The translations under genes were made by a program, and so were the position numbers. The notes under the pieces are model-generated. The model was not told the origin of the DNA. It worked only from the letters and a program-made list of their open reading frames with translations, and searched no databases. Source: a virus. Taken from it: DNA of 53,669 nucleotides. Of the stretch, positions 1 through 53,669 are shown piece after piece. The stretch lies in the IMG/VR virus record IMGVR_UViG_3300045988_178360; one strand, 5' to 3'. Position 1 is the first letter of the stretch, and every line of letters begins with the position of its first letter.

Positions 1-93
1 CCAGATTTTCAAATTTTCAGAAAATGAAATTTTCCAGTTTTTCAGAAAACCGAAATTTCCAGAATTTCCAGATTTTCAAATTTTCAGAAAATG
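1..93. repeat. Left copy of terminal direct repeat (~90 nt) built from TTTCCAG/TTTTCAG-type short motifs
   Basis: nt 5-93 match nt 53577-53666 almost base for base. Internally it is made of tandem ttttcag/tttccag units. The adjoining unique sequence differs at the two ends. Confidence 0.8.
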
Positions 94-101
94 GAAATTA
101 C

Positions 102-731
102 CTAATCATCAACTAAGTAATTTCCAGACCTCCTAAACCCATATAATGGATAATAAGACCTTACAAAAGACTTAAAATCCACACAATTGAATAAATCATG
201 ATGTTTGAATAAATACTCACAAACATCATCATATCCTTCAACATTTAACTCTTCATCATCAAACAAATCAAAGAAGACATCCAAGACATCAAATACTTCT
301 TCACTATCAATATCATCACCTAACACTGATTTGAGATGCATTTCAACATCCCATTCGGCAATACTGTTAAATTGTTCGAAATCAAAGACACAACTTTCAC
401 CAGTCCCATCACAGAAAATGAAACAAGCTGCTTCCTGATTATTGTCAAGTTTTGCTGACAATTCATTATCAATGTCAACAAAATCAAAATCACACTCTTC
501 ATTTTCAAGACTGTAATCCAAAACATCTACCATCAATGATTCATAAGTATTATGAACCCCTACGAAATCAAAACAATCAAATTCCTCAAGAACAGATGAA
601 ACACCTGCTTCAAGAGTTTTTTCATGGTAACGACCAATTTTACATTCTTCTTTACTCATGCACCAATCCACAGGCACATATCTTGATTCTTTCACATTAT
701 AGACAGTTTTAATAAACATATTTAAACACAT
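102..731 (-). CDS. Extremely acidic protein (209 aa, many D/E and repeated DFD/FDF/VLD motifs); candidate DNA-mimic anti-restriction protein
   Basis: The ORF lies next to the genome end. Its translation is dominated by Asp, Glu and Phe (DFDFVDIDNE, FDVLDVFFDLFDDEE). There is no recognizable enzymatic motif. Confidence 0.5.
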   Translation of the reverse strand: MCLNMFIKTVYNVKESRYVPVDWCMSKEECKIGRYHEKTLEAGVSSVLEEFDCFDFVGVHNTYESLMVDVLDYSLENEECDFDFVDIDNELSAKLDNNQEAACFIFCDGTGESCVFDFEQFNSIAEWDVEMHLKSVLGDDIDSEEVFDVLDVFFDLFDDEELNVEGYDDVCEYLFKHHDLFNCVDFKSFVRSYYPLYGFRRSGNYLVDD

Positions 732-813
732 CCTTTAAACAAAATTTTTGAATTGCAAACTACAACTCGTTACTAATACTATGCACATACTACTATATAA
801 ATGTTTCCCAATA

Positions 814-975
814 AAAAGTCTTTACTTTTGAGCATATAGTTTTGCAAAAGTCTTTACTTTTGAATGTATATTTTTCAAAAAGTCTTTGCTTTTGAGCATA
901 TAGTTTTGCAAAAGTCTTTACTTTTGAATGTATATTTTTCAAAAAGTCTTTGCTTTTGAGCATATACATTTATAC
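814..975. repeat. Five tandem ~32-bp iterons (aaaagtctttRcttttgaRYRtata...), two alternating variants
   Basis: Direct reading shows units at 814, 847, 879, 911 and 943. They sit between two minus-strand genes, upstream of the acidic protein gene. Confidence 0.85.
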
Positions 976-1153
976 AAGTAGCTAAACACGCTAACAACAA
1001 TTCTATAAATTTATTAAGCATAAGACAAATATTAAATATCTACAAAAATATAAAAGTAGATCCTTAAAAAAATCTAACTTAATAACTTAACAACGTACAA
1101 ATATTCAATATATAACAAATATTGAATATATAAACTGCAGTTACTGCAGCTAA

Positions 1154-2053
1154 TTAAATCATATCTAATAAAAAATTACTATAATCTTTTAATTTTAAAA
1201 CATCAAGTTTAATTAAATCTTTTTTACTTAACACCTCCTTTAATATTTTTTTAGTTGATTTATTTTTATGATTAACAAATATAACAGTCCTTTTTTCTTT
1301 TTTATTTTTACAATAACTGCAGTAACTGCAGACACCGCCACAAATAACATAATTATTATCATCATTAATATAATTATAAATGTCTGATTTATTAATAACA
1401 ATACATTTTTTAACATCTAATGACGTTTTAACATCATAACTATAATTTAAAACAATATTTGAGTTATCAATATCTTTTATATTGTCCTTTAATTCAATAT
1501 TATGAGTATATGAATAACTAACTATATCATACTTGTTTTTAAAATAAGTAGCTATCTTATTAGCCTTTTTAAACATATCATAGCTACTAAAATCCCCGCC
1601 CTCATTAAATCTAATAAATTTAATATCAGTATCAGCAGTTTTAATTACTGATTCAATATCAGTTATTATTTTTTCAACTGATAAAGTTTTAAAATTAATT
1701 TCTGCAGCTAGATTATACATACAACTATTAACATATGTGTTACTGCTTTTTTTAGCGTAACAATCTTTTTTTATATTACAGTAGCCTTTTTTACTACAAT
1801 AACAGTTAAGGGCGTGATTAGTATTAATAATAATAGTATCATCCCCTATTTTTTCATTGCCTATTTTAACAGGCATAACCTGTTTATTAACATAGTCTAA
1901 CGCCTTAGATGTAGAACTAAGCCCCTTAAATTCATTAACAATACTTGTTAATTTATCAGTATCATTAATAAATTCATTATTATTATTAATTTTTTCTTTT
2001 AGATCATAAAAATTTTTCATAATTTTCCTCCCCTCAAAAAATTTTATAATCAT
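1154..2053 (-). CDS. Cys-rich hypothetical protein (299 aa) with two Cys clusters (CYCSKKGYCNIKKDCY and CGGVCSYCSYCKN)
   Basis: Long ORF. Two clusters of 4-5 Cys suggest metal binding. Function is unknown. The 3' end lies between two copies of a 15-bp ctgcagtWactgcag palindrome. Confidence 0.45.
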   Translation of the reverse strand: MIIKFFEGRKIMKNFYDLKEKINNNNEFINDTDKLTSIVNEFKGLSSTSKALDYVNKQVMPVKIGNEKIGDDTIIINTNHALNCYCSKKGYCNIKKDCYAKKSSNTYVNSCMYNLAAEINFKTLSVEKIITDIESVIKTADTDIKFIRFNEGGDFSSYDMFKKANKIATYFKNKYDIVSYSYTHNIELKDNIKDIDNSNIVLNYSYDVKTSLDVKKCIVINKSDIYNYINDDNNYVICGGVCSYCSYCKNKKEKRTVIFVNHKNKSTKKILKEVLSKKDLIKLDVLKLKDYSNFLLDMI

Positions 2054-3370: not shown

Positions 3371-3558
3371 TGTGTCAGTGTTGTGTCGGTTTGTGTCAAA
3401 TATGGTGTGTTTTGTGTCATGTTGTGTCATTTGTGTTGGGTTTTGTGTCAGTTTGTGTTGTGTGTGTCAGTTTTTTGTGTCATGTGTGTCAGGTTTGTAA
3501 TACTACCTTATGGATAAAGTATTACTTTTTGTGTTAAGTTAAGTCAATTATGTGTCAG
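3371..3558 (+). repeat. Ten dispersed direct copies of TGTGTCR (gtgtcag/gtgtcat/gtgtcgg/gtgtcaa)
   Basis: Copies sit at about 3371, 3382, 3392, 3413, 3423, 3444, 3463, 3477, 3485 and 3551, spaced roughly 10-20 nt apart. This is the typical look of arrayed protein-binding sites, as for terminase small subunit or integrase arm sites. Confidence 0.75.
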
Positions 3559-3582
3559 AGTATGGTTCGAATCCATACTGAC
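3554..3582 (+). other. tRNA 3'-half-like minihelix (gtcag-ag-TATGGTTCGAATCCATA-ctgac): candidate att core or packaging signal
   Basis: It contains the canonical T-arm GGTTCGAATCC with a 5-bp stem, enclosed by a second 5-bp stem. No full tRNA can be built from the upstream sequence. Confidence 0.5.
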
Positions 3583-3601
3583 AGTTAGGAATAAAAAAAA
3601 T

Positions 3602-4111: not shown

Positions 4112-4570
4112 ATGCCTCGTAAGGATAGAAGGTATAAGCCTCGTAAAAATATGGATGAGGTTCCTGAGATTAATCCTAGGTCTTATAAGTTGAATAAAAC
4201 ACTTACTAAGAAGATGTGTAAGTATATTGAGGAAGGGAATTATATTAGTACGGCTTGTAAGTTGTGTGGGATTGAGCGTCATACTCATTATGATTGGATG
4301 AAGTATGGTAAAAAAGGTATTAATCCGTTTAAGGATTATTATTTGGCTATTGAGGAGGCTAAGGCTAGGGCTGAGGCTTCGATGGTTGATGTTGTGACTA
4401 GTTCTGCTTTGGTTGATGGGAATGTTGGTTCTGCTCAGTGGTGGTTGGCTCGTGTTCATCCTGACCGTTGGGCTAAAAAAGACCGTGTGGAAGCTAAAGT
4501 TGATACAAGTCAGAAGATTGAGATTGTGACTGTTTCACCGGAAAGTAATGATAAAGAAGATGAATCTTAG
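4112..4570 (+). CDS. terS: Terminase small subunit (putative)
   Basis: 152 aa with a basic N-terminus and an HTH-like region. It sits immediately upstream of the large terminase and downstream of the repeat array. Confidence 0.5.
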   Translation: MPRKDRRYKPRKNMDEVPEINPRSYKLNKTLTKKMCKYIEEGNYISTACKLCGIERHTHYDWMKYGKKGINPFKDYYLAIEEAKARAEASMVDVVTSSALVDGNVGSAQWWLARVHPDRWAKKDRVEAKVDTSQKIEIVTVSPESNDKEDES

Positions 4571-4599: not shown

Positions 4600-5816
4600 A
4601 TGTCAGCACAATGGAAATTATCAGAAAAACAAGCACAGTATATTGATGATGATTCTAATGAACTTCTTATTGAAGGAAGTGCTGGTTCTTCGGCAAAACT
4701 ATATTTGCTTGTAGTAAAGTGATTTTTTGGGCTATTAATAATCCTAATAGTCGTATTGGTGTTTTTAGGAAGACATTGCCTGCTTTGAAGAAGACTAGTT
4801 GGTTGGAGATTCGGAAGTTACTTGACAGTCATGGTATTGAGTATGAGGAGAATCGTTCGGAAGGAGTTATCATTTTAAGTAATGGTGCCACTATGAGTTT
4901 TAGTGGTTTGGATGACTTGCAAAAGGTTCGTTCTTTGAATTTGGATTATATTTATATTGAACAGGCTGAGGAAATTGACCGTGATACTTATTTGGAGCTT
5001 AAATTAAGGTTGAGGGGTTCTGGTGCTGATGTGACTTATAGGCAGGCTTTATTGGTTGTTCAGCCAAGTGAGCCGTCCCATTGGATTTATGAGTATTTTC
5101 ATAATATGCATTATGGTAAAATAGTTCATTTTAGTTTTCGTGAGAATCCATTTTTGCCTGAAGACCATAAGGAGTATTATGAGAGGTTGAAAGAGATTGA
5201 TTATGATGCTTATCGCCGTTATAGCCTCGGTGAGTGGGGTATGTTGTCCAGTCTTATTTTCAAGAATTGGGATACTGATACTCGTGAAACTTTCAATTAT
5301 TATAGTGTGGGTATTGATTTTGGTTGGGCTGTGCCGTCCGCTGCATTGTTAATTGGTTTCTATGATAATGAACCGTATATTATTGATGAGATTTATGAGA
5401 AAGAGTTGACTACTGAAGAATTATTTGAGTTGATTATAATTATGTTGGCTCGTAATGGTTTGGGGATTAGTGATATTGATTTATGTTTTGGAGATGCTGC
5501 AAGTCCTGACCGTATTATGAATTTAAATGAATGGGGATTGTATACTGAACCATCTGTTAAAGATGTTCAGGCTAAAATAAACACGGCAAAGTTGACTCAA
5601 ATTCATATTAATGAAGATAAATGTCCGAATACACTTAAAGAGATTCAGTCTTATACTTGGAGAAAGAATCGTGATGGAACTATTCTTGATGTTCCTGTTA
5701 AATTGAATGATCATGCTATGGATGCGATGATGTATTGTATTTATGGTATGTTGGGGGCGAATAGTCCGTATAAATGTGATGGTACTGTTGATTTGGATGA
5801 GGTGAGTTTTTATTAG
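4600..5816 (+). CDS. terL: Terminase large subunit, interrupted by a frameshift at about 4687-4695
   Basis: The frame starting at ATG 4600 encodes KLSEKQAQYIDDDSNELLIEGSAGS, the typical TerL N-terminus leading into a P-loop, and then hits a stop at 4720. The GKT codons (4692-4700) are in the other frame, continuous with ORF 4719-5816. That ORF ends with a DHAMDAMMY nuclease-type motif. Confidence 0.6.
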
Positions 5817-5871: not shown

Positions 5872-7077
5872 ATGTTTAATGTGGGTTTGGATGATGTAAC
5901 TGTTTCAAAGAATGGGGAAATCCCACAGGATTGGATTGAATATTGCCCTCCTAAAGTTAATCCCACTATTAAGAATCGTAGAAAAGCAGCTCACTTCCCA
6001 GTAGTGTATGGTATTATCAATAATTTGATTTTGAAGGCTATTGCTACTTTAACGATTGATGGTACTGATGATGAGGCTGTACAGCATATTCTTGACATGG
6101 ATAAAATATGGAATTTGAAGGGCATGTGTTATGATGGTGCTTGGAAGAATATTGTTGATGGAGAGGCTTTTTATGAAGAAGTTACTGTTAATGGTCATGC
6201 TGATTTGAGGAGTTTGGCTTTTGATGGTGAGAAGTATCTTATTCGTAAGTTATATGATGATAATGCTAATTTATTAGGGTATATGCAGTTGGTTGCTGTT
6301 AATAGTCCGATTCCAAAGAATTGGGATAAATTAGAGTTTTGGGAGTTGTATCAGAATAAGGACATTAAAACAGTTTCTTTTAAAGCGGAGGATATTAGTA
6401 ATCCGATTTTTATTGAGATTGATGGTGTTGGTCAGTCATTAGTTAAGAATGTGATTGATCCGGCTTATGAGATTGAATCGTTGAATCGTATGTTGCCGGC
6501 GATTGTGCATAAGTCTGCTAATGTTATGGTTTTAACTGTTGGTAATGAGCATCGTAAAGAAACATCTATGAGCAAGGTTCGTAAGCAGGAGGTTGCTGAA
6601 GACTTAAGTGATTACCATAAAAAAGGAGTTTTGTTGATTCCGTATGGTATGGAGTTGGATGTTGTTGGAGATAATGTTCTTCCGAAGGTTGAGGATTATA
6701 TTAAAGCTTTGAAAAGTCAAATTTATGAAGGTTTAATCACTCCAGAATCCACTTTCAGTAGTGAGTCTTCTAATCGTAGTACTGCGGAGGTTCAGTTGAC
6801 TTCTGAATCTAATGGTCATGTGTTGCTTATTCAGTTTTTACAAGAGTTCCTTAAAAGATGGTTGGAAAGGGATTTGATTAATCGAGAATTATCATTGATT
6901 GGTAAACCTGAAGGTAGTGTGTGGATTAATTTCCAAACTGGTGACCATAATCTTGATAATAATTATTTGGAAACTGATAATAGTATTGAAACTGAAGAGG
7001 ATACTGTTGAGAATGAATTAGATTCATCTGATGATGATGAGGAGGTAGATGATGGTTCAGGAGATTCAGTCGACTGA
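5872..7077 (+). CDS. Portal protein (putative)
   Basis: 401 aa, directly after terL, with a strongly acidic C-terminal tail (SSDDDEEVDDGSGDSVD) typical of portals. Confidence 0.55.
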   Translation: MFNVGLDDVTVSKNGEIPQDWIEYCPPKVNPTIKNRRKAAHFPVVYGIINNLILKAIATLTIDGTDDEAVQHILDMDKIWNLKGMCYDGAWKNIVDGEAFYEEVTVNGHADLRSLAFDGEKYLIRKLYDDNANLLGYMQLVAVNSPIPKNWDKLEFWELYQNKDIKTVSFKAEDISNPIFIEIDGVGQSLVKNVIDPAYEIESLNRMLPAIVHKSANVMVLTVGNEHRKETSMSKVRKQEVAEDLSDYHKKGVLLIPYGMELDVVGDNVLPKVEDYIKALKSQIYEGLITPESTFSSESSNRSTAEVQLTSESNGHVLLIQFLQEFLKRWLERDLINRELSLIGKPEGSVWINFQTGDHNLDNNYLETDNSIETEEDTVENELDSSDDDEEVDDGSGDSVD

Positions 7078-7780
7078 TGAGTTTTATTTAGATGATTATT
7101 TACCTCTTGATTTCGCTCCGAATGATGCTTATGATTCTGAGGAGCAATTTGTGATATTAATGTGCTTGTTATTGCTAAAAGAGTATTATGAGGAGTATAG
7201 TAAAACACCACTTGAAGATTTAATCAACACCATTGAAAAGGATATGGAAGAGTTAAACACCAAATTATCCACAGAAGGAATGGATTATATTAAACAAGCT
7301 GTGGATAAAACATTTTCTTCCGAATTAGATTCGTATAAGATACCGGAGAACACCATTTCACCAAATTATAATGAATTAGTTATTTTAGCTGGTTTTCAAG
7401 CATTAGTTAATCAGTTAAGAGATGATTTAAAAGCCAAAGCATTATATTATGCGGAGAATTTAGGTAAAACACCATTTGATTTGAAACCGAACTTCAGAAG
7501 AGCAATTAAAAGGATTAATGATGTTGTAGGTACTGGTTTGGTTAATGCAAAGGAGAAATCTCATCGTGAAGTTTCTAAATTTGTTTATGGTGAAAATGCA
7601 TTGTTTTACTGGGTTTGTAAAATGGATGCTAAAACCTGTGCTTGGTGTAGAAGTCAGGCAAGGTCTGAACCACGACCTATTGACGAGTGGGAGTTAGACC
7701 ACCCGTATGGTAGATGTACTTTGAAACCTGTTAAGGAAGATTTTTCAAGTGATTATAAATTATTGGTTGGGATAGTATGA
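7049..7780 (+). CDS. Minor head / head morphogenesis protein (SPP1 gp7 / Mu F-like, putative)
   Basis: The position after portal and the C-terminal CAWCRS...DHPYGRC motif are reminiscent of that family. Assignment is by eye only. Confidence 0.35.
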   Translation: MMVQEIQSTDEFYLDDYLPLDFAPNDAYDSEEQFVILMCLLLLKEYYEEYSKTPLEDLINTIEKDMEELNTKLSTEGMDYIKQAVDKTFSSELDSYKIPENTISPNYNELVILAGFQALVNQLRDDLKAKALYYAENLGKTPFDLKPNFRRAIKRINDVVGTGLVNAKEKSHREVSKFVYGENALFYWVCKMDAKTCAWCRSQARSEPRPIDEWELDHPYGRCTLKPVKEDFSSDYKLLVGIV

Positions 7781-8628
7781 TTACAATTTTCAAAACCGGT
7801 GAAATTAAGTATCCGGAATCTTTGAATAAACCAGTTAAATATGATATTGATTTTTTAAAGAGTATTGCTTCAAGCACAGCATCTGCCAAGATTACTCGTG
7901 AGCATTCTGATGATGTGCTTGGTGTTTTAAGTAATTTTGTTGTTGAAGATGGTTGTTTGAAGGCTGATGAACCTGAAGGTCTTGAGTTGAAAGGTATGGG
8001 TTTTAGTCCAGTTTTTGAATTTGATTTACTGGAGTATGATTCATATTTTAAACCAGTGAATGGTGTTATGACAGAGATTGGGTTTACAAAGACACCAAGA
8101 AGCCAAATTGTATATAATAGTATTGGGGCTTCGAATGGAGATGATAATATGTCTGATGATGCTTTAAGAAGAGTCTTGCAAGAGAAAGAAGACTTGGTTA
8201 AGAAAATGGGAGTTTTAGAGAAGGAAAGAGATTCTTATCAGAAAATGTTGGAAGCAAGAGATGGTGAGATTGAGAAAATTAAAAATTCCTATTCCGATGT
8301 TGACAATAAATTAAAAGAAATCGATGCTTTGAAGGAGAAAGCAGATTTATATGACTCATTACAAGCTTCTCGTAAACAAGAGTTGATTAATGAGCTTGTT
8401 GGTGGAAATAAGGATTTAGCAGAGAAGTATGAGTCTTTTACTTATGACCAATTAACATTCTTGAAAGAGAATAAAGTTCCAACTAATCCTGGTCAAGGAG
8501 TACCATCTGTGGGAGCTACTGGATTGGATATTGAAGGAACACACCCATCATCAAATAATGATGATGAGTATTCTGATGATGAATTTAAAGCAGATTATAA
8601 AGCTTTGTTCGGAGTCGATGTTGAATAA
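7777..8628 (+). CDS. Scaffolding protein (possibly fused to prohead protease region)
   Basis: Long charged coiled-coil segment (EKEDLVKKMGVLEKERDSYQKMLEARDGEIEKIK...) upstream of the capsid gene. Confidence 0.45.
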   Translation: MITIFKTGEIKYPESLNKPVKYDIDFLKSIASSTASAKITREHSDDVLGVLSNFVVEDGCLKADEPEGLELKGMGFSPVFEFDLLEYDSYFKPVNGVMTEIGFTKTPRSQIVYNSIGASNGDDNMSDDALRRVLQEKEDLVKKMGVLEKERDSYQKMLEARDGEIEKIKNSYSDVDNKLKEIDALKEKADLYDSLQASRKQELINELVGGNKDLAEKYESFTYDQLTFLKENKVPTNPGQGVPSVGATGLDIEGTHPSSNNDDEYSDDEFKADYKALFGVDVE

Positions 8629-8667
8629 ACTAAAATTAAATTAAAAATTTTAAAGGAGTTATAGAAT

Positions 8668-9162
8668 ATGGTTAAAATTCAAAACTACGACCCTTATGAA
8701 ACAGATATTAAATTTGATGTTGAAGAAGGAGATGTAACTGTAAAAACTGGTTTTGCAGACTTTGGTAAAGATGATGTACTCTTCTTTTCCAAGGAAATTA
8801 AAAAAGGAGATTATGTGGCTTTAGATATTACCAGTATGACTGTTAAAAAAGCAGCTAAAGCAGATAAAATCATTGGTCAAGTGATTGATGAACCTGCTTT
8901 TAAAGGTGGCAGACCTAAAGAAGACACTACTTCAGGTAATTACACTAGAAGAGTTGCAACTGTAAGGTTATGGGGAGATTATGCTCATTCTGTACAGTTA
9001 AAAGCAGAGAATAAAGCTATTGCAATGGGAGATTCTGTTGCTTATGAAGGAGATAATGTATTCGATAAGGCAACCACTGCAAATACCACTATTGCATTAG
9101 AAACTGCAGAAGCTTTGAAAGCTCCTAAAGTATTGGTTTTATTCGGTTACAGAGGTTTATAA
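8668..9162 (+). CDS. Head protein of unknown role (164 aa)
   Basis: ORF between the scaffold and capsid genes with a strong RBS-like AGGAG upstream. Confidence 0.35.
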   Translation: MVKIQNYDPYETDIKFDVEEGDVTVKTGFADFGKDDVLFFSKEIKKGDYVALDITSMTVKKAAKADKIIGQVIDEPAFKGGRPKEDTTSGNYTRRVATVRLWGDYAHSVQLKAENKAIAMGDSVAYEGDNVFDKATTANTTIALETAEALKAPKVLVLFGYRGL

Positions 9163-43461: not shown

Positions 43462-43464
43462 TAT

Positions 43465-43944
43465 TTATGACCTTCCTTTCTGTTTAGGAGATTTTTTCAA
43501 AGTATACCCATTTTCGTGCATGAGCCTATGTAAACCTTTAATTGTGTCACTTTTCAAATCTTTGAACATGAAACTTCCATGTCTTTTATAAACCTTACTA
43601 TAACCCATTTTTGATGGGGTAGTACTATATTCATAAATCTCTAAATCTTCTTGAATATCGCATAATTTGTTTTTATCCCAATCATATTTTTTTAATTCTT
43701 TCACAATTGATTGTGCTTCTTCTAAAGTTTGATACTGCCCATAATTAACATCATTTTTTTTCACAATATACACTCTTCTTTTAAGATAAACATAATCCTT
43801 ATTCCTATTATGAGCAGTTTTTCCTTTGCGTTTTTCTAATAATTTAAAAGCAGTTTCTAAATCCAAATTATGCTTTAAAAAAATATTGTGAAGAGAGTCA
43901 TCAGACTCTCTTATTTCTAAGCTTAATTCTTCTGCAGAAATCAT
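43465..43944 (-). CDS. AP2-like DNA-binding protein (159 aa)
   Basis: YGQYQTLEEAQSIVKELKKYDWDKNK matches the AP2-like signature seen in 35943-36350. Confidence 0.35.
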   Translation of the reverse strand: MISAEELSLEIRESDDSLHNIFLKHNLDLETAFKLLEKRKGKTAHNRNKDYVYLKRRVYIVKKNDVNYGQYQTLEEAQSIVKELKKYDWDKNKLCDIQEDLEIYEYSTTPSKMGYSKVYKRHGSFMFKDLKSDTIKGLHRLMHENGYTLKKSPKQKGRS

Positions 43945-45285: not shown

Positions 45286-46005
45286 TTACTGCTCCAGTAT
45301 TGGTGCTATTAAAGTAGTTAGTTCAACATCATTATTCTCAAATTTAAATATTGCTGGATAGTCATTGTCAAATTTGAGTTTAACTTCATTTGAAATGTCT
45401 GGGAAGTTTATAACATCTTTAAAATTATTTATATTATATGTTGCTCTCCCATCATTATTTGTTTCTCCTAACTCTGCACATTCAACCGCTCCTTTATAAT
45501 CATTTAATCCATAGAATTTTAAATCATTATCCTCGCTTGTTAAAATTACCACTGGACTTGCCATTAAATCCAAATCTTTTAAGGAATCAAGCAAAAAATC
45601 TAAATTAACAGTTGATTCTATGTTTAAATCAAAGGAGGGTAATTCTCGAAAAGTATCATATTCATCAAGTAAACTGATAGTGAAATTCCTCCTCCGATCC
45701 CCATTAATAATAATATGCAGTTCATATGAGTCCACATCAAATATTATGCTTTCTCCATGCTTTACTGTTTTTAAAATTTTAAACAAATCACTTGGAACTA
45801 TTCTAATAGCTTCATTGTCTGCTACTTCAAATAATTCAAAGTAACTTCTTTTAAAAAACACTTCAAACATTGTAGTCATGGATTTGGAAGCAACTTGACA
45901 TTTTAAACCATCTTCAGAAGCAATGAATGTTATTTCATCAGCAACATTACTAACTCCTTTTAAAAAATTAGTTAAAGCTGAAAATTCATATAATGAAAAC
46001 TTCAT
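45286..46005 (-). CDS. PCNA-like sliding clamp candidate (239 aa)
   Basis: Length and the two-domain pattern fit PCNA: N-terminal ALTNFLKGVSNVADEITFIASEDGLKCQ resembles PCNA [28 protein letters not shown], with an LIAP-containing C-terminus. Acidic pI. Confidence 0.4.
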   Translation of the reverse strand: MKFSLYEFSALTNFLKGVSNVADEITFIASEDGLKCQVASKSMTTMFEVFFKRSYFELFEVADNEAIRIVPSDLFKILKTVKHGESIIFDVDSYELHIIINGDRRRNFTISLLDEYDTFRELPSFDLNIESTVNLDFLLDSLKDLDLMASPVVILTSEDNDLKFYGLNDYKGAVECAELGETNNDGRATYNINNFKDVINFPDISNEVKLKFDNDYPAIFKFENNDVELTTLIAPILEQ

Positions 46006-46727
46006 TATTTCACCTCATCCAAATAATAATTTTTACTATTGATTGAACCATTATTTGTGACTTCTAATCTTTGAAATCCACATAAACTCATGTCTTTACC
46101 TTGATTATGTGCATAACTATTCTCATAATTTAGGAAATGTCCAGTAAAACAATAATACCTTCTTTTACCACCATTATAATCACGAATATATTTACTACTA
46201 AATTCGCTAAAATGATTATGCCCCATCATACACAAATCTGCATGAATACTACTCATATCCTGTATAAAACCTCTCATTGCTAATTGGGGACTTTTACTGA
46301 ATCGAGTACCATGCTTTCCATAAACAATTAAATCTTTACCATTGATTTCTAATTTATCAAAGAAATCATTACTTGTATACTCTGCACTCAATCTTTCAGC
46401 TATAATTTTAGTCGCATCAAGATTAAAATCTTTCTTTGTTCTTCTTTCATGATTTCCAGTTGCACAAAACCGAACATACTTTTTGTGTGGTCTGAATAAA
46501 TCAATAACTTGTTGCACAGAATCCTCTGTACTCATAGAGCTGTCAAATGCACCAATTCGTGAAGAAGGATTGTCAATCAAATCACCTAACAAGTAAATGC
46601 ATTTGTTTTTACTTGTTTCTCTGAATGTTTTATCCCAAAATTTGAAAAATTCATTATTGAATTTCTCATGACCTAAATGAAGGTCACTGACTGGGAATAT
46701 GTAAAATTTACCTTTAGCCACACTCAC
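46005..46727 (-). CDS. Calcineurin-like metallophosphoesterase (Mre11/SbcD-type or Ser/Thr phosphatase)
   Basis: Motifs DLHLGH, GDLID, GNHE and GHNH appear in the canonical order. Confidence 0.6.
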   Translation of the reverse strand: MSVAKGKFYIFPVSDLHLGHEKFNNEFFKFWDKTFRETSKNKCIYLLGDLIDNPSSRIGAFDSSMSTEDSVQQVIDLFRPHKKYVRFCATGNHERRTKKDFNLDATKIIAERLSAEYTSNDFFDKLEINGKDLIVYGKHGTRFSKSPQLAMRGFIQDMSSIHADLCMMGHNHFSEFSSKYIRDYNGGKRRYYCFTGHFLNYENSYAHNQGKDMSLCGFQRLEVTNNGSINSKNYYLDEVK

Positions 46728-47198: not shown

Positions 47199-47861
47199 CT
47201 AACCAATTTCTCCAATTATTTTATCAGCAGTTTTCGAACCAATACCATTGATTCCCACCAAATCCTCTTTAGTAACCTCCAATAAATCTCTTAAACTTTC
47301 TAATCGCAAATGCTCCTTAATAAGAATTGCTTTCTTCGTACTAATAGTATCAATACAACATAAGAATGTTCCCACACTATCACTCATTTTACAAACTGGT
47401 TTTTCGATAGGTTCATGCTTATCTTTTGCTAAAATATTCTTTGCAAGATAAGTCATAATAGTGAATGCTTGATTCTTATTTTCAACCATTATTACTTTAT
47501 CATGCTCCAACAATGTTGCTAAAGCACCTAACAAGTTTTTCATAGTAAACTCCTTTAAAGAAGTTTTTTTCCTAATAAAATACTGGTTTTTTAAGTGCTG
47601 ATACACATTACCGACAATGATAATATAACTGAATGGATATTGCCTCATTCTTTGAGTTTGTTTGAAAATCCTCCTGTCCATGATACTGGACACAAAATCA
47701 GAAGGTGTTTTCCATTCAAAGACCAATTTATCGTTGAATAAGTAATCTCCAACTGGCAGTCTTGTTTGTTTTGTCTGCACATCATTCTCATTAAAGAACT
47801 TCATTGCTGATTCAATTCTTTTACTGTCTTCACGATCATCTATTTTACAGCAGAAGTTCAT
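47199..47861 (-). CDS. ERCC4/XPF-Hef-Mus81 family nuclease with C-terminal HhH
   Basis: VGDY…VFEWKTPSDFVSSIMDRRIFKQ matches the ERCC4 ERKx3D…GR…Q motif. The C-terminal GINGIGSKTADKI is a helix-hairpin-helix. Confidence 0.55.
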   Translation of the reverse strand: MNFCCKIDDREDSKRIESAMKFFNENDVQTKQTRLPVGDYLFNDKLVFEWKTPSDFVSSIMDRRIFKQTQRMRQYPFSYIIIVGNVYQHLKNQYFIRKKTSLKEFTMKNLLGALATLLEHDKVIMVENKNQAFTIMTYLAKNILAKDKHEPIEKPVCKMSDSVGTFLCCIDTISTKKAILIKEHLRLESLRDLLEVTKEDLVGINGIGSKTADKIIGEIG

Positions 47862-48859
47862 ATTATCCTCCCATTTTCATCGAATTCTACAAGCCCTTTC
47901 TTCTTCAAAGTCCATATATTTCCTTTTTCTCCACAGGCACTGCAACTAAACCATTCTTTAGTTATTAATAAACTTGGTTTGTTGTCATTATGCCATGGGC
48001 ATTTCATATAACCATATCCTCGGTCATATACTTTAATTTCTTCTCCAGTTACCTGTGGCAGGACTTCTCGTAAGTCATTTGCTTGAATTGGGTCTGATAA
48101 CCCATCTATTTTTAACTTTTTAATTCTCCTTTTTTTATTTAGTTCAACTATTTCGCACTTACTATGTGCATATCTTAATGCTCTATGTTGCTTTTCAGTA
48201 GGTTCTTGCATTTCCTTAAAAGAACCTTCAATTATTCTACAAGTTTTATGTGAACTTGGATGTTTACTGCCAATTAAACGAATATTTCCAGTCAAGCCTG
48301 CATTAGTATTCACATCATCCAATGTAGATAATTCAAGATGTGACTCTTGCAAACTTGTTGAAAATATCAGACAATGAACAAACTCTGAAAAAAATTTATT
48401 CCAATCATTAATTCCTCTTTGCTCATCTTCAGCATTAGCAAACAATACTGGACTTATTTGAATGTAAAGATGATATCCTTTATTCCCAGACTCAACAATA
48501 ACACAATTATGCCCTTCCAAGGTTAATTTATTCTTTAGCCTTTCAACATCCTGAAAAGCAACAGCAATATCTTCAGAATCAAAATCAAGAATAATACATT
48601 CCACCATCCTATTTTTGGGATATTTTGTAATGTAAATATCCGAATTATCATCTTGATTTTGCAATGTTTTCTCAAATATTTTGCTGTTCCAATTTTTTCG
48701 TTGTTCAGCATAATCCTTATCACGATGTCTAATCGTGATTGTATGTTGCTTGTCTTTGAATAATTGACTATAATTCATCTGCAACACCATCCAAATAAGG
48801 TAAATCATTAACAATAGGTTCAACAGTTTCAAATAATGATTTTTTAGAAGCAGTATCAT
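47858..48859 (-). CDS. Primase-polymerase (PrimPol, archaeo-eukaryotic primase superfamily) with C-terminal zinc finger
   Basis: Motif I ILDFDSED, motif II SGNKGYHLYI, and a C-terminal CPWHND…CSACGEKG zinc motif. Confidence 0.6.
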   Translation of the reverse strand: MILLLKNHYLKLLNLLLMIYLIWMVLQMNYSQLFKDKQHTITIRHRDKDYAEQRKNWNSKIFEKTLQNQDDNSDIYITKYPKNRMVECIILDFDSEDIAVAFQDVERLKNKLTLEGHNCVIVESGNKGYHLYIQISPVLFANAEDEQRGINDWNKFFSEFVHCLIFSTSLQESHLELSTLDDVNTNAGLTGNIRLIGSKHPSSHKTCRIIEGSFKEMQEPTEKQHRALRYAHSKCEIVELNKKRRIKKLKIDGLSDPIQANDLREVLPQVTGEEIKVYDRGYGYMKCPWHNDNKPSLLITKEWFSCSACGEKGNIWTLKKKGLVEFDENGRII

Positions 48860-50645
48860 TTTTAAGGAAATCTAATAATTCATCAGAATTATCCGGATAT
48901 GTAACTGTAAACAATTTAACTGCTTTATCTAAAGCAGATTGTTTAAATTCTGGTATAACCTCCTCAACTGGTTTATCCATACCAGTATTCAAAGCATACA
49001 CATTCATATTCCCATGAGTAGATTTCCCCACTTTTACAAGAATCCCTTCATTATACAATGCTTGTAAACGATTACTTGCTTGTTTAGCACCACTTTTACG
49101 GAACCATTGCTTATTCCTATGCTTTTTCTTCAAAGATTCAACACTAAAAAGATAATCCTTCAAAAAAGCATCATCTTCATCAATCTTTGAATTATAAGCG
49201 AAGTTATCGTAGTCTTTTGAATCAGCATCTAAAGAATCAAGTATCCATTCTCTCACATCTGCATCAAAATCCTCTTTACTTAAAGTAGGTTGTTGAACTA
49301 TCTCATATGATTCAATCAAGCCATTTGCAAATTTTATTTCATCTGGCAAAAGATTTGATGAGCTGAATATGTTTAAAGCATTGATATTATCCTGTTTACT
49401 TGCAATCACAATCGGTGTTTGTTTCTTTGCAAATTGACTGTCAACATATATCTCATGAGACAACTCAAAAGGATGATGCAAACAAGTTACAATCTTCAAG
49501 ATAGCTTCATACTCCTGAATCTTCCTTGTGAAATCATCATGATTCTTCAAATGCTCCTCAATAGTGAACATATAAGGATTAAAAAAATCCATATCTTCCA
49601 CATTATAATTATAGGTAAATCCTTGAACACTTCGTGTAATATGTTTTATCAGGTTCAAAGAAGTGTAAAATTTACCTTTTGCTTCATGCACACTATTATA
49701 AATCATTAATTTCTCAGAGTCTAAAATTTGAGGTGTTAAAATAATTGACCTTGACTTTTCCTGATCATTAATTAACTCCTCATTTGCAGTTGTATATGAC
49801 AAGCAAGGATTTCCAGTTACGAACTGGTCTTCTTCTTCCATGCTGTCTTTATCAACAATACCTCTTTTCTTATACCCATCAGTCGTTAACTCCTTTAAGG
49901 TATCTCTCATTTCTATAGTATTGTTATTGTCAAAATCTCCACCTAAATCCCCCATAAAAAAGATGTGTCCACTTAAATCTTTTCCATTATATTTTCTGAA
50001 GAAATAAGCAACACTATCCACTCCTTTATGGACTCTTTCCTCAGGTATCATTGATAATGCATTTTCTAACATGAATGATTTTCCAGAAGCTTGATTTCCA
50101 ACTGCAATCACATTTGTTGCTTTTATACCAGTATAAGTTTGAAAATATCCAAAAAAAGCATTAATAATCTCCCTTGGATTCCCCACACCTAAACAATGGC
50201 TTGTTGCAACAATCAATTCTAAAGGAGTCATATTATACTCTGCACAGTAAGCATTAAAGGATGCTTCAAGAGTATCATATTTCTCCTGAATCTCTTTCTC
50301 CTTTTTCTGCTCTTCCTGAAAATCTTGTTGAGCAGTACTCTCCATATTAGCTTCCAATTCATTTTTTAACTGGATTAAATGTTTTCCTGCTCTGTCTTCA
50401 AGAATTGCAGAGTTCACATAACTTACATCACCCAACTCATCAATTAATTCTTTTTTTGCTTGTTGAGTTGCGTATTTTTTCAAATACTGATGTAACTCAC
50501 CCCCACCTACTTCTGTAGGTGAGGATTTACTATGAGCAACAATAGACACTCCATCATCGGTTTTTTCCTCATACCGATATGGTTTATCTTTTTTTTCAGT
50601 AGATACACATCTTAACTGCATATCCGCAATTGTCACCCATGTCAT
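48768..50645 (-). CDS. P-loop NTPase, putative replicative helicase / primase-associated protein (D5/P4-like)
   Basis: Walker A VGNQASGKSFML and Walker B-like IFFMGDLGGDFD. It lies directly upstream of PrimPol and overlaps it. Confidence 0.45.
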   Translation of the reverse strand: MTWVTIADMQLRCVSTEKKDKPYRYEEKTDDGVSIVAHSKSSPTEVGGGELHQYLKKYATQQAKKELIDELGDVSYVNSAILEDRAGKHLIQLKNELEANMESTAQQDFQEEQKKEKEIQEKYDTLEASFNAYCAEYNMTPLELIVATSHCLGVGNPREIINAFFGYFQTYTGIKATNVIAVGNQASGKSFMLENALSMIPEERVHKGVDSVAYFFRKYNGKDLSGHIFFMGDLGGDFDNNNTIEMRDTLKELTTDGYKKRGIVDKDSMEEEDQFVTGNPCLSYTTANEELINDQEKSRSIILTPQILDSEKLMIYNSVHEAKGKFYTSLNLIKHITRSVQGFTYNYNVEDMDFFNPYMFTIEEHLKNHDDFTRKIQEYEAILKIVTCLHHPFELSHEIYVDSQFAKKQTPIVIASKQDNINALNIFSSSNLLPDEIKFANGLIESYEIVQQPTLSKEDFDADVREWILDSLDADSKDYDNFAYNSKIDEDDAFLKDYLFSVESLKKKHRNKQWFRKSGAKQASNRLQALYNEGILVKVGKSTHGNMNVYALNTGMDKPVEEVIPEFKQSALDKAVKLFTVTYPDNSDELLDFLKNDTASKKSLFETVEPIVNDLPYLDGVADEL

Positions 50646-51709: not shown

Positions 51710-52704
51710 TTCACATCACCTGATGCAAAAGAAGATAGCTGTCGCTAACATAAAAACAGTTAACATAAAATAGATGACTCCAGAATAGTTTATCCTAAAA
51801 TTAAAACTATCCTTTTGAGGATAAAGACCATGTTTATTGTCCACCCTCCAAAAATCTGCTAAAGCAGTTAAAAAACCACTCATACCTTTACACTCTCCTT
51901 TTTAGTCAGAGAATGTGCATTTAAATTAGCTTTAGCTTCCGCTAACAGTAATTTAAACAATTTTTTATCTTGCTCTGATATAACATAACCTGAAATAGGT
52001 GTTACAGAGCCTTGTTTTAAATAATACCTTCTTACCACCTTCCAATTCTAATATACACAAAAAAACAAGTTATATGAAAGCTTCCACACAATCATACAAA
52101 TTTTTCCTATGTACACATACATATTTATCAAAACAAGTATATAAACTTTACCCCAATAGATAATTATATATACAAAAAATGAATAAATTATAACTTGCAC
52201 ATAATTTTCTGCTTTTTTTATACAAAAATATAAAGCTACCGTTCAAAAAAAAATTATTGTGCCTTGAGTTTAAAGATCATGTTTTTGTGAGTACTGTATC
52301 TTCCACAACAGGTTTGAAAGCAGAAACATGACTAAACTCATGTACACTAAAACACTAACAAAACCATAAAAAACATATCATCTATAATTTCCAATAAAAC
52401 ACCCTCAATTAAAACAATACTTGCAAGTGCAAGTACTCATTTAATCAACCATTCTTTTAATTAAAACACTTACTTCAAACACACCTTCCCACACAATGAC
52501 AAAATATAAATACTAACAAAACACAAAAAAAGATAATATGTGCAGAGTACCGCACATGTGATTAATAAATACATAGTTTAATCACGTCCTTTAAAAAAAT
52601 TTTTGGTGAAGTAGCTTTTGTGAAAAATGTTTTATACTTTTCTACATCTGTAATTTTACATTTTTCACCTACTTCGTTTTTTATTTTTCATAAATATAAC
52701 CTTG

Positions 52705-52956
52705 TTATTTTTTCAGAAACAACCTTGTTAAAATTGTTTCAATAGTTTCACCTTCTGTAATAGCATATTCCTTAATAAAAGAAACTGCTTCAGGTGAAAT
52801 AACCACATTTCGCCTGAACTGACCTTTTTCAAAATCAGAAACAGGAAAAGCCTTGAGAAGGCGGATAATGCACTTCTCAAAACTTTCATTTTCACGTTTT
52901 TGGGAGCTGATATAATGATACAACTCCATATTCACTTTAATAGGCATATAGCACAC
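52705..52956 (-). CDS. Possible ribbon-helix-helix-type regulator (83 aa)
   Basis: N-terminal IKVNMELYHYIS beta-strand then helix pattern. First genes of the minus-strand arm. Confidence 0.3.
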   Translation of the reverse strand: MCYMPIKVNMELYHYISSQKRENESFEKCIIRLLKAFPVSDFEKGQFRRNVVISPEAVSFIKEYAITEGETIETILTRLFLKK

Positions 52957-53199
52957 CTATTCATACTCAAATTTTGATAAATCATCAATTAAATCATCAA
53001 TGATTTTTTCAAAATCTGCATCAGGAGAAATATCCCATAATTCCAAATCTCTCCCATTTTTAATCCACAAATGGGATTGATTTACAGTTGCAACAAAAGC
53101 ATCCCATTCTTTAGGACAGGTATCTTTAAAGAATAAAGCTACTTTCCTACTTTTAACATCAAATGATGTATCAAATTTAATTCCTTTATACTCAAACAT
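52957..53199 (-). CDS. Hypothetical protein (80 aa)
   Basis: ORF only. Confidence 0.3.
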   Translation of the reverse strand: MFEYKGIKFDTSFDVKSRKVALFFKDTCPKEWDAFVATVNQSHLWIKNGRDLELWDISPDADFEKIIDDLIDDLSKFEYE

Positions 53200-53205
53200 A
53201 TTTAA

Positions 53206-53487
53206 TCACTCCTTTTTAATTTTTAAACCGTCATGGATTTCCAATACTTCTCCTGAAGCCATGCCTTCAGTTAATTCCAATAAATCTAACTGTTTTGTTT
53301 CTTCAATGAACTCTGCAAAGAATTCATTGTACTCCTCATCTTGAAAACTCCAACTTGACTGCTGAAGCACCCCAGTAGGTTCACCATTATCCCCCACCCA
53401 TTTCAACTCCCCATCATCATAGACCCAGAATTGAATATAAGATTCTTTATCATCTTCATTTTTTATCAAAGTATATAATTCACACAT
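53206..53487 (-). CDS. Hypothetical acidic protein (93 aa)
   Basis: ORF only. Confidence 0.3.
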   Translation of the reverse strand: MCELYTLIKNEDDKESYIQFWVYDDGELKWVGDNGEPTGVLQQSSWSFQDEEYNEFFAEFIEETKQLDLLELTEGMASGEVLEIHDGLKIKKE

Positions 53488-53576
53488 AAATAATCACTCC
53501 TTAATAACAATTTTTCATATTTCAAATATATATAATTTTCCAGAAATTCATGATCCAAAAATTTCCAGTTTTTCAG

Positions 53577-53669
53577 AATTTTCAAATTTTCAGAAAATGA
53601 AATTTTCCAGTTTTTCAGAAAACCGAAATTTCCAGAATTTCCAGATTTTCAAATTTTCAGAAAATGAAA
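53577..53669. repeat. Right copy of terminal direct repeat (or circular-contig overlap)
   Basis: Same sequence as 1-93, seen by direct comparison of the window ends. Confidence 0.8.

Follow-up and report, generated by a model that had tools for sequence, protein, structure and literature searches.

The 53,669-nt IMG/VR record IMGVR_UViG_3300045988_178360 (the window, meaning the whole stretch of DNA analysed) raised the question of whether it is the entire genome of a temperate tailed virus of a pseudomurein-walled methanogen, and whether that virus is undescribed, both of which the preliminary description had proposed. The window (GC = 31.7%) is very probably a complete, circularly closed genome of ~53.57 kb from a siphovirus-type member of Caudoviricetes with a long, non-contractile tail. 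This virus would infect gut Methanobrevibacter and belong to the lineage catalogued as Caudoviricetes sp. vir249.

The gene content was arranged in the two arms described previously. Packaging, head, tail and Pei genes, large fibre-like proteins and the integrase lay on the + strand at ~3.6-36 kb, and replication, nucleotide-metabolism and accessory genes on the - strand at 36-53.5 kb (Table 1). The PrimPol, PCNA-like and Hef-like proteins named earlier were all recovered by profile searches, and the Prim-Pol carried the invariant DxD and H motifs, with PDB profile matches to Prim-Pol, LigD-Pol and PriS. The acidic 209-aa protein, which had no match in Pfam, PHROG or PADLOC, belongs to a 1.16-kb cassette (53221-53669 plus 1-712) absent from vir249, and the 32-nt array lay in an AT-rich segment also lacking a vir249 match. 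Upstream of the late operon, nine TGTGTCA motifs on one strand were followed by a hairpin with the canonical tRNA T-loop sequence GGTTCGAATCC (3552-3586). Within IMG/VR, this cluster was found in no other clade, and it may be a pac site or a regulatory site.

Table 1. Features of the window, with strand and basis of assignment.
Feature	Coordinates	Strand	Basis or remark
Left terminal-overlap copy	1..96	.	within TTTYCAG(A/T) octamer array
Very acidic 209-aa protein, pI 4.05	102..731	-	
Tandem array, 32-nt period, 64-nt super-period, 4.8 copies	813..966	.	
299-aa Cys-rich protein, Pfam GP88 family	1154..2053	-	9.2e-10, above cutoff; no vir249 match
TGTGTCA cluster and hairpin	3371..3586	+	directly upstream of late operon
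Small terminase subunit	4112..4570	+	weak Sf6_terminase and HTH matches; vir249 ortholog annotation
Large terminase (Terminase_3/PBSX type)	4600..5816	+	two frames, 2-nt insertion in Walker A
Portal protein	5872..7077	+	weak Portal_Mu match; vir249 annotation
Head morphogenesis, prohead protease and scaffold genes	7049..9162	+	vir249 annotation; weak Phage_scaffold match
Major capsid protein (MCP), HK97-type	9179..10054	+	Pfam Phage_capsid_4, 31.1 bits (cutoff 27); vir249 annotation
Major tail protein	11960..13075	+	vir249 annotation, phrog_290
Tail assembly chaperone region, overlapping ORFs	13133..14409	+	vir249 annotation
Tape measure protein, 1911 aa	14464..20199	+	C-terminal transglutaminase/Pei-like Cys-His-Asp core
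Distal tail/baseplate-type proteins	20288..27220	+	includes 1361-aa and 640-aa proteins, Ig-like domains
Pseudomurein endoisopeptidase Pei (Peptidase_C71)	27354..28172	+	invariant C188, H219, D238
1041-aa tail protein	28941..32066	+	Cys-rich segment aa ~435-505; candidate third Cys-His-Asp core
Fibre or receptor-binding-type protein, 834 aa	32073..34577	+	87.5% nt identity to vir249
Intergenic, upstream of integrase gene; candidate attP	34578..34778	.	analogy with integrated relative
Divergent tyrosine recombinase (integrase)	34779..35957	+	family invariants K198, H263, R266, Y304
Three paralogous small genes	36819..38385	-	two with dN/dS > 1 vs vir249
82-aa 2x[4Fe-4S] ferredoxin	38370..38618	-	Fer4 2.4e-9; Fer4_9 above cutoff
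tRNA-Leu (anticodon TAG)	38645..38732	-	inside 1.9-kb segment without vir249 match
ASCH protein, dCTP deaminase, P-loop (guanylate-kinase-like) kinase, methanogen-type thymidylate synthase	40051..44669	-	
Archaeal-type PCNA sliding clamp	45286..46005	-	Pfam PCNA_N; NCBIfam archaeal sliding clamp 3.6e-26
Calcineurin-like (Mre11-type) phosphoesterase	46005..46727	-	homolog in Methanobrevibacter provirus L021
ERCC4 nuclease with HhH2, short XPF/Hef-type	47199..47861	-	7.6e-16
AEP Prim-Pol fused to C-terminal DnaG-type CHC2 zinc finger	47858..48859	-	motifs, profiles
625-aa P-loop NTPase (DUF5906), putative replicative helicase	48768..50645	-	
Right terminal-overlap copy	53574..53669	.	92/96 identical to 1-96, 89 nt exact

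In the late arm, the distal tail proteins matched Big_3_5 (7.7e-14) as well as CarboxypepD_reg and Big domains, while the major tail protein had no match in the Pfam search. Three Pei-like domains had been proposed, and one of them stood, scoring 33.5 bits for Pfam Peptidase_C71 (cutoff 22). The core of the tape measure protein (C1797, H1829, D1840; ~nt 19741-20013) was sub-threshold (Transglut_core E 0.0048; hhalign E 0.0077), and the candidate core of the 1041-aa tail protein (aa 560-625, nt 30618-30815) was recognised by motif order alone (hhalign E 0.22, AlphaFold pLDDT 35). The 834-aa fibre gene was the most divergent of these genes shared with vir249.

The closest GenBank record was that of vir249 (BK063678.1 = NC_133254.1 in RefSeq), annotated as circular, from human gut, with a host in Methanobacteriales; names of the 'virNNN' form fit the Medvedeva et al. 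2023 compendium that PMC11375127 cites. In megablast against vir249, bases 1-25000 aligned at 96.9% identity with 90% covered, and bases 25001-50000 at 94.9% with 93% covered. Local blastn put the identity at ~95.7%, the aligned fraction at 0.90 for the window and 0.945 for vir249, and the intergenomic similarity at ~88.3%. The two genomes are collinear throughout, with the same gene order, Pei, integrase and replication genes, and every structural and replication gene that they share is under purifying selection, with dN/dS values of 0.03-0.3. In length, the window exceeds vir249 by 2.4 kb. The segments without a vir249 match (1-712, 818-2387, 38630-40499, 52255-52683 and 53221-53669) include the acidic protein together with a 93-aa ORF and the TTTYCAG array, the GP88-family protein with the 32-nt repeats, and the tRNA-Leu along with three ORFs. 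Like the fibre gene, those for dCTP deaminase (86%) and ferredoxin (79%) have diverged markedly more than the rest.

The identical ~90-nt direct repeats reported at the ends were confirmed as an exact 89-nt repeat (5-93 = 53578-53666) within a 96-nt register, and they are not due to chance. They might have been an internal tandem-repeat artefact of an incomplete linear fragment, since the ends lie in the repetitive TTTYCAG array, where a 67-nt duplication allows two overlap registers and explains a further exact 29-nt suffix-prefix match. However, two independent IMG/VR contigs (L003 and L005) span the junction collinearly and carry the repeat just once, and the flanks of both window ends are contiguous in circular vir249, which refutes the artefact and leaves it with practically no probability. 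These contigs and the collinear vir249 therefore indicate a closed genome, circularly permuted or circular, of ~53,573 bp, and the claim of an entire tailed-virus genome is supported. The claim that the virus is probably undescribed is largely refuted, as near-identity to a described virus is essentially what the vir249 match amounts to. A new methanogen virus is very unlikely, although ~10% of the window has no vir249 counterpart, vir249 itself is unclassified below class and known solely from assembly, and the MCP search of GenBank viruses returned no match besides vir249. The alignment passes the vOTU criterion (95% ANI over 85% aligned fraction), so that the two are one vOTU, and vir249 is annotated and in RefSeq. 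Identical or near-identical sequences are also public (one ENA contig matches at 100% over 21,179 nt, and several IMG/VR UViGs and the ENA contig are 96-100% identical). Each of the protein clusters runs to hundreds of sequences, and the lineage is frequent in metagenomes. Whether it would be called the 'same virus' depends on the criterion, as ~88% is below the ICTV species line of 95% intergenomic similarity.

Two further alternatives concern how this closed genome of the vir249 lineage is propagated. The large terminase (Pfam Terminase_3 6.2e-20) is interrupted by an insertion at 4690-4691, so that ORF1 covers 4600-4722 and the downstream frame is open to 5816; normal packaging therefore needs recoding or another rescue. 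A packaging-defective lineage, persisting as a replicon or with a co-infecting helper carrying the intact allele, is unlikely, even though the same 2-nt insertion is common to the window, vir249 and six IMG/VR contigs, the downstream frame has no in-frame start codon upstream of the Walker A lysine, GTG 4719 lacks a Shine-Dalgarno sequence, and close relatives carry the intact allele. Against such a defect, the downstream frame showed 22 synonymous versus 6 non-synonymous polymorphic codons in the seven insertion genomes, compared with 4:25 and 1:28 in the other two frames. Its dN/dS against vir249 was 0.07, the head and tail genes were all constrained too, and the lineage is frequent; the downstream frame is under purifying selection, and recoding across the insertion is possible. 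As for the recombinase, its AlphaFold model (pLDDT 85) predicts a tyrosine-recombinase fold, with XerA, XerH, IntI, Cre and lambda Int as best Foldseek matches. It is improbable, but less so than a packaging defect, that this enzyme is an Xer-like resolvase of multimers of a circular episome or of replication intermediates, in a lytic or plasmid-like carrier-state virus that does not integrate. Archaeal XerA and XerH are the best structural matches, and searches of Pfam, PHROGs and NCBIfam did not identify the catalytic domain as that of a phage integrase. Every retrieved copy was free, genome-length or shorter, and without host flank: the three identical-integrase contigs were all 50-200 kb (the one inspected was 53.6 kb and wholly viral), and contigs with a 96% integrase had viral DNA on both sides or ended. 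Nor did an MCP scan of 185,579 species-representative genomes find a match, and no integrated copy of this virus was found among the genomes scanned and the contigs retrieved. However, a full-length, 40%-identical relative lies where provirus meets host in a complete Methanobrevibacter chromosome: it is flanked by host genes (TatD, SepF, ZPR1, adhesin) and, on the opposite side, by homologs of early genes of the window. This is the signature of an integrated element, and the window's integrase gene sits at the late/early module boundary, as is usual for phage integrases. By analogy with this relative in another Methanobrevibacter species, we infer that the virus is temperate; the recombinase fold and the integrated relative favour that earlier claim, and the free state of all retrieved copies does not.

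The host is supported as a pseudomurein-walled methanogen, in line with the preliminary description, by the Pei, PCNA, thymidylate synthase, integrase relatives and the vir249 host label, and it is most likely a gut Methanobrevibacter of the M. smithii group. Pei matches were exclusively to methanogen viruses, the thymidylate synthase was of methanogen type (thy_syn_methano 2.1e-40), and five of the six genomic integrase relatives were in Methanobrevibacter assemblies. The sixth was on a 3.4-kb contig in a Lachnospiraceae MAG bin, whose sequence matches a viral metagenome contig. The nearest large terminase relatives outside the lineage in the phage collection were of bacterial phages at ~30-34% identity, which shows no more than that this gene is not host-diagnostic.

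In the proposed life cycle, the tape measure's C-terminal transglutaminase-like domain would probably cut pseudomurein at entry. The early leftward operon would then supply the Prim-Pol/zinc-finger primase, helicase-like P-loop NTPase, archaeal PCNA, Mre11-like and XPF-like nucleases and dNTP-pool enzymes; as no DNA polymerase gene was found in the window, the host polymerase is presumably recruited via the viral clamp. DNA would be packaged by the PBSX/Terminase_3-type terminase into a virion that has an HK97-type capsid and whose tail is set by the 1911-aa tape measure. Headful packaging from concatemers, suggested by the terminase family, would account for the circular closure of the assemblies. 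Release would depend on Pei, a member of the endoisopeptidase family with that predicted activity. The tyrosine recombinase would give the potential for integration, with attP probably just upstream of its gene.

The large terminase belongs to the same family as the PBSX/Terminase_3 enzymes of Firmicutes and Thermotogae phages such as Thermoanaerobacterium phage THSA-485A (34% identity), but each of those is encoded by one ORF in which the GSxGxGKT P-loop is intact, whereas the P-loop codons of the window are broken by the +2 insertion. A Pei with the Cys-His-Asp triad is also found in psiM2/psiM100 and PhiF1, the Methanothermobacter viruses from which PeiP and PeiW come, with 30% identity to the PhiF1 Pei; these have thermophilic hosts, and the searches run gave no other similarity. 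The Methanobrevibacter sp. DSM 116169 element (NZ_CP166990.1, L021), which carries the integrated integrase relative, has the same module order, the integrase being followed on the opposite strand by homologs of three window proteins: the 135-aa basic protein, the Metallophos nuclease and the ERCC4 nuclease. It differs in being integrated beside host genes, in protein similarity of only 37-42%, and in its structural genes, which show no match within the 10 kb that could be compared on that side. MSTV1 (Methanobrevibacter smithii tailed virus 1, placed in the proposed family 'Usuviridae'; PMC11375127) resembles the window in its Methanobrevibacter host setting in the human gut, its temperate siphovirus-type organisation and the Ig-like domains on its virion proteins. 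Its PeiW-like Peptidase_C71 endolysin is 69.5% identical in amino acids, with 78% nucleotide identity over a 214-nt stretch. However, nothing else matches at the nucleotide level, the MCPs have no detectable similarity, and MSTV1 is smaller (38.8 kb versus 53.6 kb). MSTV1 represents a different family-level lineage, with the lysin as the one module in common.

The window was 53,669 bp long with a GC content of 31.7%, and its two ends carried the same sequence. The preliminary description had reported identical direct repeats of ~90 nt, and the alignment agreed: bases 5-93 and 53578-53666 matched exactly over 89 nt, and 92 of the 96 positions were identical in the wider register of 1-96 and 53574-53669. 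A further exact match of 29 nt between the suffix and the prefix of the window arises because the ends fall within arrayed TTTYCAG(A/T) octamers that include a 67-nt duplication. About ten of these octamers lie at the genome junction (53537-53669 and 1-127), upstream of the leftward early genes. Two IMG/VR contigs (L003 and L005) crossed the junction, with 52727-53669 continuing directly into 2-16269 and the repeat present once. The flanks of both window ends also adjoin each other in the circular genome of Caudoviricetes sp. vir249 (BK063678.1 = NC_133254.1), the closest GenBank record. Because the repeat is single in L003 and L005 and the flanks are contiguous in vir249, the end repeat marks closure; a chance match or a tandem-repeat artefact was ruled out by the same two contigs and by the collinearity of vir249. 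The window is thus an entire virus genome, as had been proposed, and closure with one repeat copy gives a unit genome of ~53,573 bp.

Coding strand and GC skew divided the genome into two arms. The packaging-head-tail-lysis-integrase arm expected from the first reading lay on the + strand (~3.6-36 kb), and the replication and accessory arm lay on the - strand (36-53.5 kb). The portal was assigned from weak Pfam support (E 0.0035) together with the annotation of the vir249 ortholog, and the vir249 ortholog of the major capsid protein (MCP) carries the annotation HK97-like fold. With an HK97-fold MCP, a large terminase and a portal, the window belongs to the Caudoviricetes. No DNA polymerase gene was detected in the window. 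The thymidylate synthase was of the methanogen type (TIGR03283, 2.1e-40), and its cluster with the dCTP deaminase and the P-loop nucleotide kinase may remodel the dNTP pool or serve DNA modification. The ferredoxin, which is "hypothetical" in vir249, could be an auxiliary electron carrier in the methanogen host. A PADLOC search with 10 accessory proteins of the window gave zero matches.

Features of the window, with coordinates, strand or arm, and supporting match
Feature	Coordinates	Strand or arm	Support or remark
Small terminase (TerS)	4112-4570	+	
Large terminase (TerL), Terminase_3/PBSX type	4600-5816	+	Pfam 6.2e-20
TerL ORF1	4600-4722	+	starts at ATG 4600
TerL downstream ORF	4719-5816	+	GTG start
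Portal, head morphogenesis, protease and scaffold genes		+ arm	
MCP, HK97-type	9179-10054	+	Pfam Phage_capsid_4, 31.1 bits (cutoff 27)
Major tail protein and chaperones		+ arm	
Tape measure protein, 1911 aa		+ arm	
Large distal tail proteins with Ig-like domains		+ arm	
Pseudomurein endoisopeptidase (Pei)	27354-28172	+	Peptidase_C71, 33.5 bits (over cutoff 22)
Two more large proteins, 1041 aa and 834 aa		+ arm	
Recombinase, 392 aa		+ arm	
Paralogous gene trio	36819-38385	-	
Ferredoxin, 2x[4Fe-4S], 82 aa	38370-38618	-	Pfam Fer4 2.4e-9
tRNA-Leu(TAG)	38645-38732	-	
ASCH protein		- arm	
dCTP deaminase, P-loop kinase and methanogen-type thymidylate synthase, clustered	40707-44669	-	
Archaeal PCNA		- arm	3.6e-26
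Metallophos nuclease		- arm	
ERCC4+HhH nuclease		- arm	
Primase candidate, 333 aa	47858-48859	- arm	
DUF5906 P-loop protein, 625 aa		- arm	

The preliminary description had counted three Pei-like Cys-His-Asp domains. One of these, the product of the Pei gene, stood to the curated standard, and the other two fell below it. The triad of the Pei product (C188, H219, D238) was invariant in six methanogen-virus Pei sequences. The C-terminus of the tape measure protein, which reads ...VNCYDGTNALLALARTCGF...PHVWAVINGQKMDTTGW..., scored 17.6 bits against Transglut_core, under the cutoff of 23 (E 0.0048), and aligned to the Pei profile by hhalign at E 0.0077 with the Cys and His in register. This candidate is probably a wall-degrading domain carried by the virion. 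The third candidate, in the 1041-aa protein (28941-32066), reads ...QCDCFGMTAYLFIEFMRAGYRVRAIKYY...GTHRTVQIWQNGGWVDPS... and follows the C...H...D order at aa 571/573, 606 and 619 by motif order alone. It had no Pfam match, an hhalign E of 0.22, two partial matches in the homolog search and an unusable AlphaFold model (pLDDT 35). The same tail protein contains a Cys-rich segment at 30240-30455 (aa ~435-505; CACC...CPNC...C...C...CGYC...C), which resembles zinc-ribbon modules and is common to one metagenomic protein (P0341).

The Pei product matched methanogen viruses only: Methanobrevibacter smithii tailed virus 1 (MSTV1, 69.5%), vir323 (40%), vir080 (partial) and PhiF1 (30%). An alignment-based scan of representative genomes for the integrase family found six loci, five of them in Methanobrevibacter assemblies. 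The sixth lay on a 3.4-kb contig in a Lachnospiraceae MAG bin, and its sequence matched a viral metagenome contig. The biological reading was right, in that the window is a complete virus of a pseudomurein-walled methanogen. Taken together, the Pei matches, the integrase loci and the human-gut source point to Methanobrevibacter as the probable host, and within it the M. smithii group is the likeliest. The GC content of the window (31.7%) fits M. smithii, whose genome has a GC content of ~31%. In catalogue work, most human-gut archaeal Caudoviricetes were linked to this host through CRISPR spacers (PMC9800368). Viruses of gut methanogens bear on methane output and on the ecology of the gut, yet cultured examples are very few, so accurate assignment of host and life style for prevalent lineages is useful.

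All three archaeal replication proteins named in the preliminary description were recovered. The PCNA-like protein was an archaeal PCNA. The Hef-like protein was a short XPF-type nuclease (ERCC4 7.6e-16, HHH_5 8.2e-6): Hef and XPF share an ERCC4 nuclease domain and HhH2, full Hef adds a helicase domain, and the window protein has 220 aa without a helicase domain. The primase candidate was assessed as an AEP by motif I (DxD), motif II (xxH), motif III and likeness to solved AEPs. In an alignment of 32 homologs, D64 and D66 (DxD), H102 and H172 were invariant and a CHC2 zinc finger was present. Its profile matched solved AEPs (7nqd/7nqf at 1.7e-5, LigD PolDom at 0.015-0.02 and PriS at 0.011), and the C-terminal zinc finger matched DnaG zinc-binding domains at 2e-9. 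The identification as a PrimPol was borne out by these invariant motifs and profile matches.

Directly upstream of the late operon, on the + strand, nine TGTGTCA motifs occurred on one strand within 187 nt (3371-3557). The cluster ended in a hairpin (3552-3586) with the canonical tRNA T-loop sequence GGTTCGAATCC and an acceptor-like stem; in IMG/VR, the exact 24-mer of the hairpin was found only in this clade. The whole element (3371-3586) may be a pac or regulatory site. The surrounding ~1.2 kb (2390-3600) contained no credible ORF: ORFs called mechanically had dN/dS of at least 1, and vir249 annotates no gene there. G-runs, C-runs and several short tandem repeats were also present in this region. 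In the Rfam search tRNA was the sole match at the gathering threshold, and the single match in 2.4-3.6 kb was far under its gathering score.

The catalytic domain of the recombinase was not recognised in sequence searches of Pfam, PHROGs, NCBIfam and PDB, and fold prediction was needed. Among 63 homologs, K198, H263 and R266 (H263-x-x-R266), R295 and Y304 were invariant and R140 was nearly invariant; the first catalytic Arg was assigned by position only. The AlphaFold model had a pLDDT of 85, and the top 32 Foldseek matches in PDB were all tyrosine recombinases at probability 0.9-1.0, among them XerA, XerH, IntI, Brujita Int, Cre and lambda Int, each at ~1.0. The predicted fold and the catalytic residues (R, K, HxxR, H/W, Y) identify the protein as a tyrosine recombinase. 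The main rival to a temperate life style is a Xer-like, non-integrating role for this recombinase, and XerA and XerH stand among its structural matches. The integrase family also includes a relative, 40% identical, in the complete chromosome of Methanobrevibacter sp. DSM 116169 (locus L021, NZ_CP166990.1, 557142-578332). Host genes for TatD, SepF, ZPR1 and an adhesin lie immediately upstream of that integrase, and downstream lie homologs of three window proteins, the 135-aa basic protein, the Metallophos nuclease and the ERCC4 nuclease. This gene order shows L021 to be an integrated element that is bordered by its integrase gene. By likeness to L021, attP of the window virus would lie within 34578-34778. 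L021 abuts the adhesin-like gene and could be used to pin down the att sites of integrases of this family.

No integrated copy of the window virus itself was found, which is weak evidence because the genome search took one genome per species. An MCP scan for proviruses in 185,579 species-representative genomes gave no relative, and exact-sequence look-ups of the integrase and its 96% cluster representative returned viral contexts only. Two other candidates for integration sites were rejected. Three contigs stop 157-194 nt upstream of the integrase gene, beside the hypervariable fibre gene; viral sequence aligned right to their ends, which are therefore taken to be breakpoints of strain variation rather than att junctions. 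The T-loop-like hairpin (3552-3586) was rejected as the primary attP carrying a tRNA 3' end because in L021 the DNA immediately upstream of the integrase gene belongs to the host. The temperate life style of the earlier description is therefore a well-supported inference, which rests on the recombinase fold and on the integrated relative.

The TerL gene was split between two frames. The Terminase_3 match in the GTG-initiated ORF of 365 codons started at profile position 32, and the N-terminus was encoded in a different frame. In ORF1, GGGGGTGG precedes ATG 4600 and the translation is MSAQWKLSEKQAQYIDDDSNELLIEGSAGSSAKLYLLVVK followed by a stop, while the -1 frame reads ...FFGKTIFACSKVIFWAINNP... 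A set of 38 distant TerL relatives had one continuous frame, ...GSAGSGKTIFAC..., and TerL was also continuous in OBHX01000380.1 and OLVS01000839.1, at 99% protein and ~96.4% nucleotide identity to the window. Six IMG/VR contigs, which come from three IMG metagenome datasets, shared the sequence GCTGGTTCTTCGGCAAAAC with the window and vir249; the co-circulating intact allele was GCAGGGTCTGGTAAAAC. The two alleles differed by a 2-nt insertion (4690-4691) and three flanking synonymous changes, all within 12 nt, and the insertion falls inside the Walker A (P-loop) codons.

The downstream frame of TerL is still constrained and under purifying selection. In the seven insertion-bearing genomes compared, it contained 22 synonymous and 6 non-synonymous polymorphic codons, compared with ratios of 4:25 and 1:28 for the remaining two frames, and dN/dS against vir249 was 0.07. 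Ordinary initiation misses the Walker A lysine: in this frame no start codon precedes GKT, and GTG 4719 lacks a Shine-Dalgarno sequence. Two candidate -1 slip sites were present: A_AAA_C, followed by the rare 0-frame codon CTA (3.2% of Leu codons in viral genes), and U_UCU_UCG, in which TCG is likewise rare (1.5% of Ser codons). The P-loop would gain one residue from a slip at either site. RNA structure 3' of the shift site did not differ from shuffled sequences (z -0.67). Our tentative reading, to which we give somewhat less than an even chance, is that the vir249 lineage, including the window, expresses TerL by conserved recoding, most simply by -1 ribosomal frameshifting at the rare-codon sites, an event that would fall within the Walker A codons. 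Possible alternatives are that TerL works as a two-piece enzyme or that the lineage depends on genomes carrying the intact allele. The tRNA-Leu(TAG) encoded by the virus reads CTA, the codon directly after the A_AAA candidate site.

If TerL is indeed recoded, an archaeal virus would be controlling its packaging ATPase at the level of translation or making a structural variant of it. A literature search, matched by terms only, found no description of a frameshifted TerL of this kind. With a conserved out-of-frame Walker A beside a natural intact allele, the polymorphism provides a tangible example in which the possible use of recoding by an archaeal virus can be tested, and it is the single feature of the window that deserves an experiment.

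The virus had been called probably undescribed. This claim failed, since RefSeq already contains the lineage and public data hold it in abundance: vir249 (51,140 bp, circular, human gut, host Methanobacteriales) is catalogued and annotated. Megablast against GenBank phage records matched vir249 with 96.9% identity across 90% of bases 1-25000 and 94.9% across 93% of bases 25001-50000. Whole-genome blastn gave ~95.7% identity, with aligned fractions of 0.90 (window) and 0.945 (vir249). The two genomes are the same vOTU (MIUViG: ANI of 95% or more, aligned fraction of 85% or more). Their VIRIDIC-like similarity of ~88.3% is below the ICTV species value of at least 95% over the full genome length and well over the usual genus value of 70%, and they are not the same ICTV species. 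This makes the window either a strain of vir249 or a sister species. The virNNN names come from the compendium of Medvedeva et al. (2023), as far as its citation in the MSTV1 paper (PMC11375127) indicates; the literature searched gave no mention of the vir249 accessions. An ENA contig (ERZ27229815:k119_184485, 53,629 bp) was 100% identical across the 21,179 nt retrieved, and five IMG/VR UViGs were 96-98% identical to the window. The 90%-identity clusters held 457 member sequences for the integrase and 777 for the DUF5906 protein, and one carrier contig came from a pig gut metagenome.

Taken as a genome, the window contributes little to a lineage that is in RefSeq, abundant in public gut metagenomes and similarly annotated in its modules. 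It supplies a second closed and complete genome for a lineage of Methanobrevibacter viruses that vir249 alone represents in GenBank. An MCP tblastn search of the GenBank phage set found no relative beyond the lineage, vir249 being the sole match, and the Pei module was the only thing in common with MSTV1, of the proposed family "Usuviridae". With no outside relative of the MCP and only Pei shared with MSTV1, the lineage is distinct from "Usuviridae", whose structural module (MCP and others) the window does not share.

Differences from vir249 were concentrated in a few places. vir249 had no match to a 1.16-kb cassette (53221-53669 and 1-712) in which a 93-aa ORF and a very acidic 209-aa protein (pI 4.05) flank the TTTYCAG array, edged by similar AAACATATTTAA(T/A)CAC gene-start sequences. 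It also had no match to 818-2387 (tandem repeats of 32 nt and a Cys-rich protein of the GP88 family), 17421-17685 within the tape measure gene, 38630-40499 (1.9 kb; tRNA-Leu and three ORFs) or 52255-52683. The repeats at 813-966 (32-nt period, 64-nt super-period, 98% matches, 4.8 copies) lie in an AT-rich region (26% GC) beside the GP88-family gene and look like iterons. Common structural and replication genes had dN/dS of 0.03-0.3 against vir249. The 834-aa fibre-like gene was the most divergent (87.5%), the dCTP deaminase was only 86% identical and the ferredoxin 79%. The paralogs of the trio, which had no match in Pfam or PADLOC, were 28-36% identical mutually, and two of the three had dN/dS of 1.3 and 2.1, values suggestive of diversifying selection on a role in host interaction or counter-defence. 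The comparison of the window with vir249 thus marks flexible cassettes, a putatively diversifying paralog trio and a fast-diverging fibre gene.
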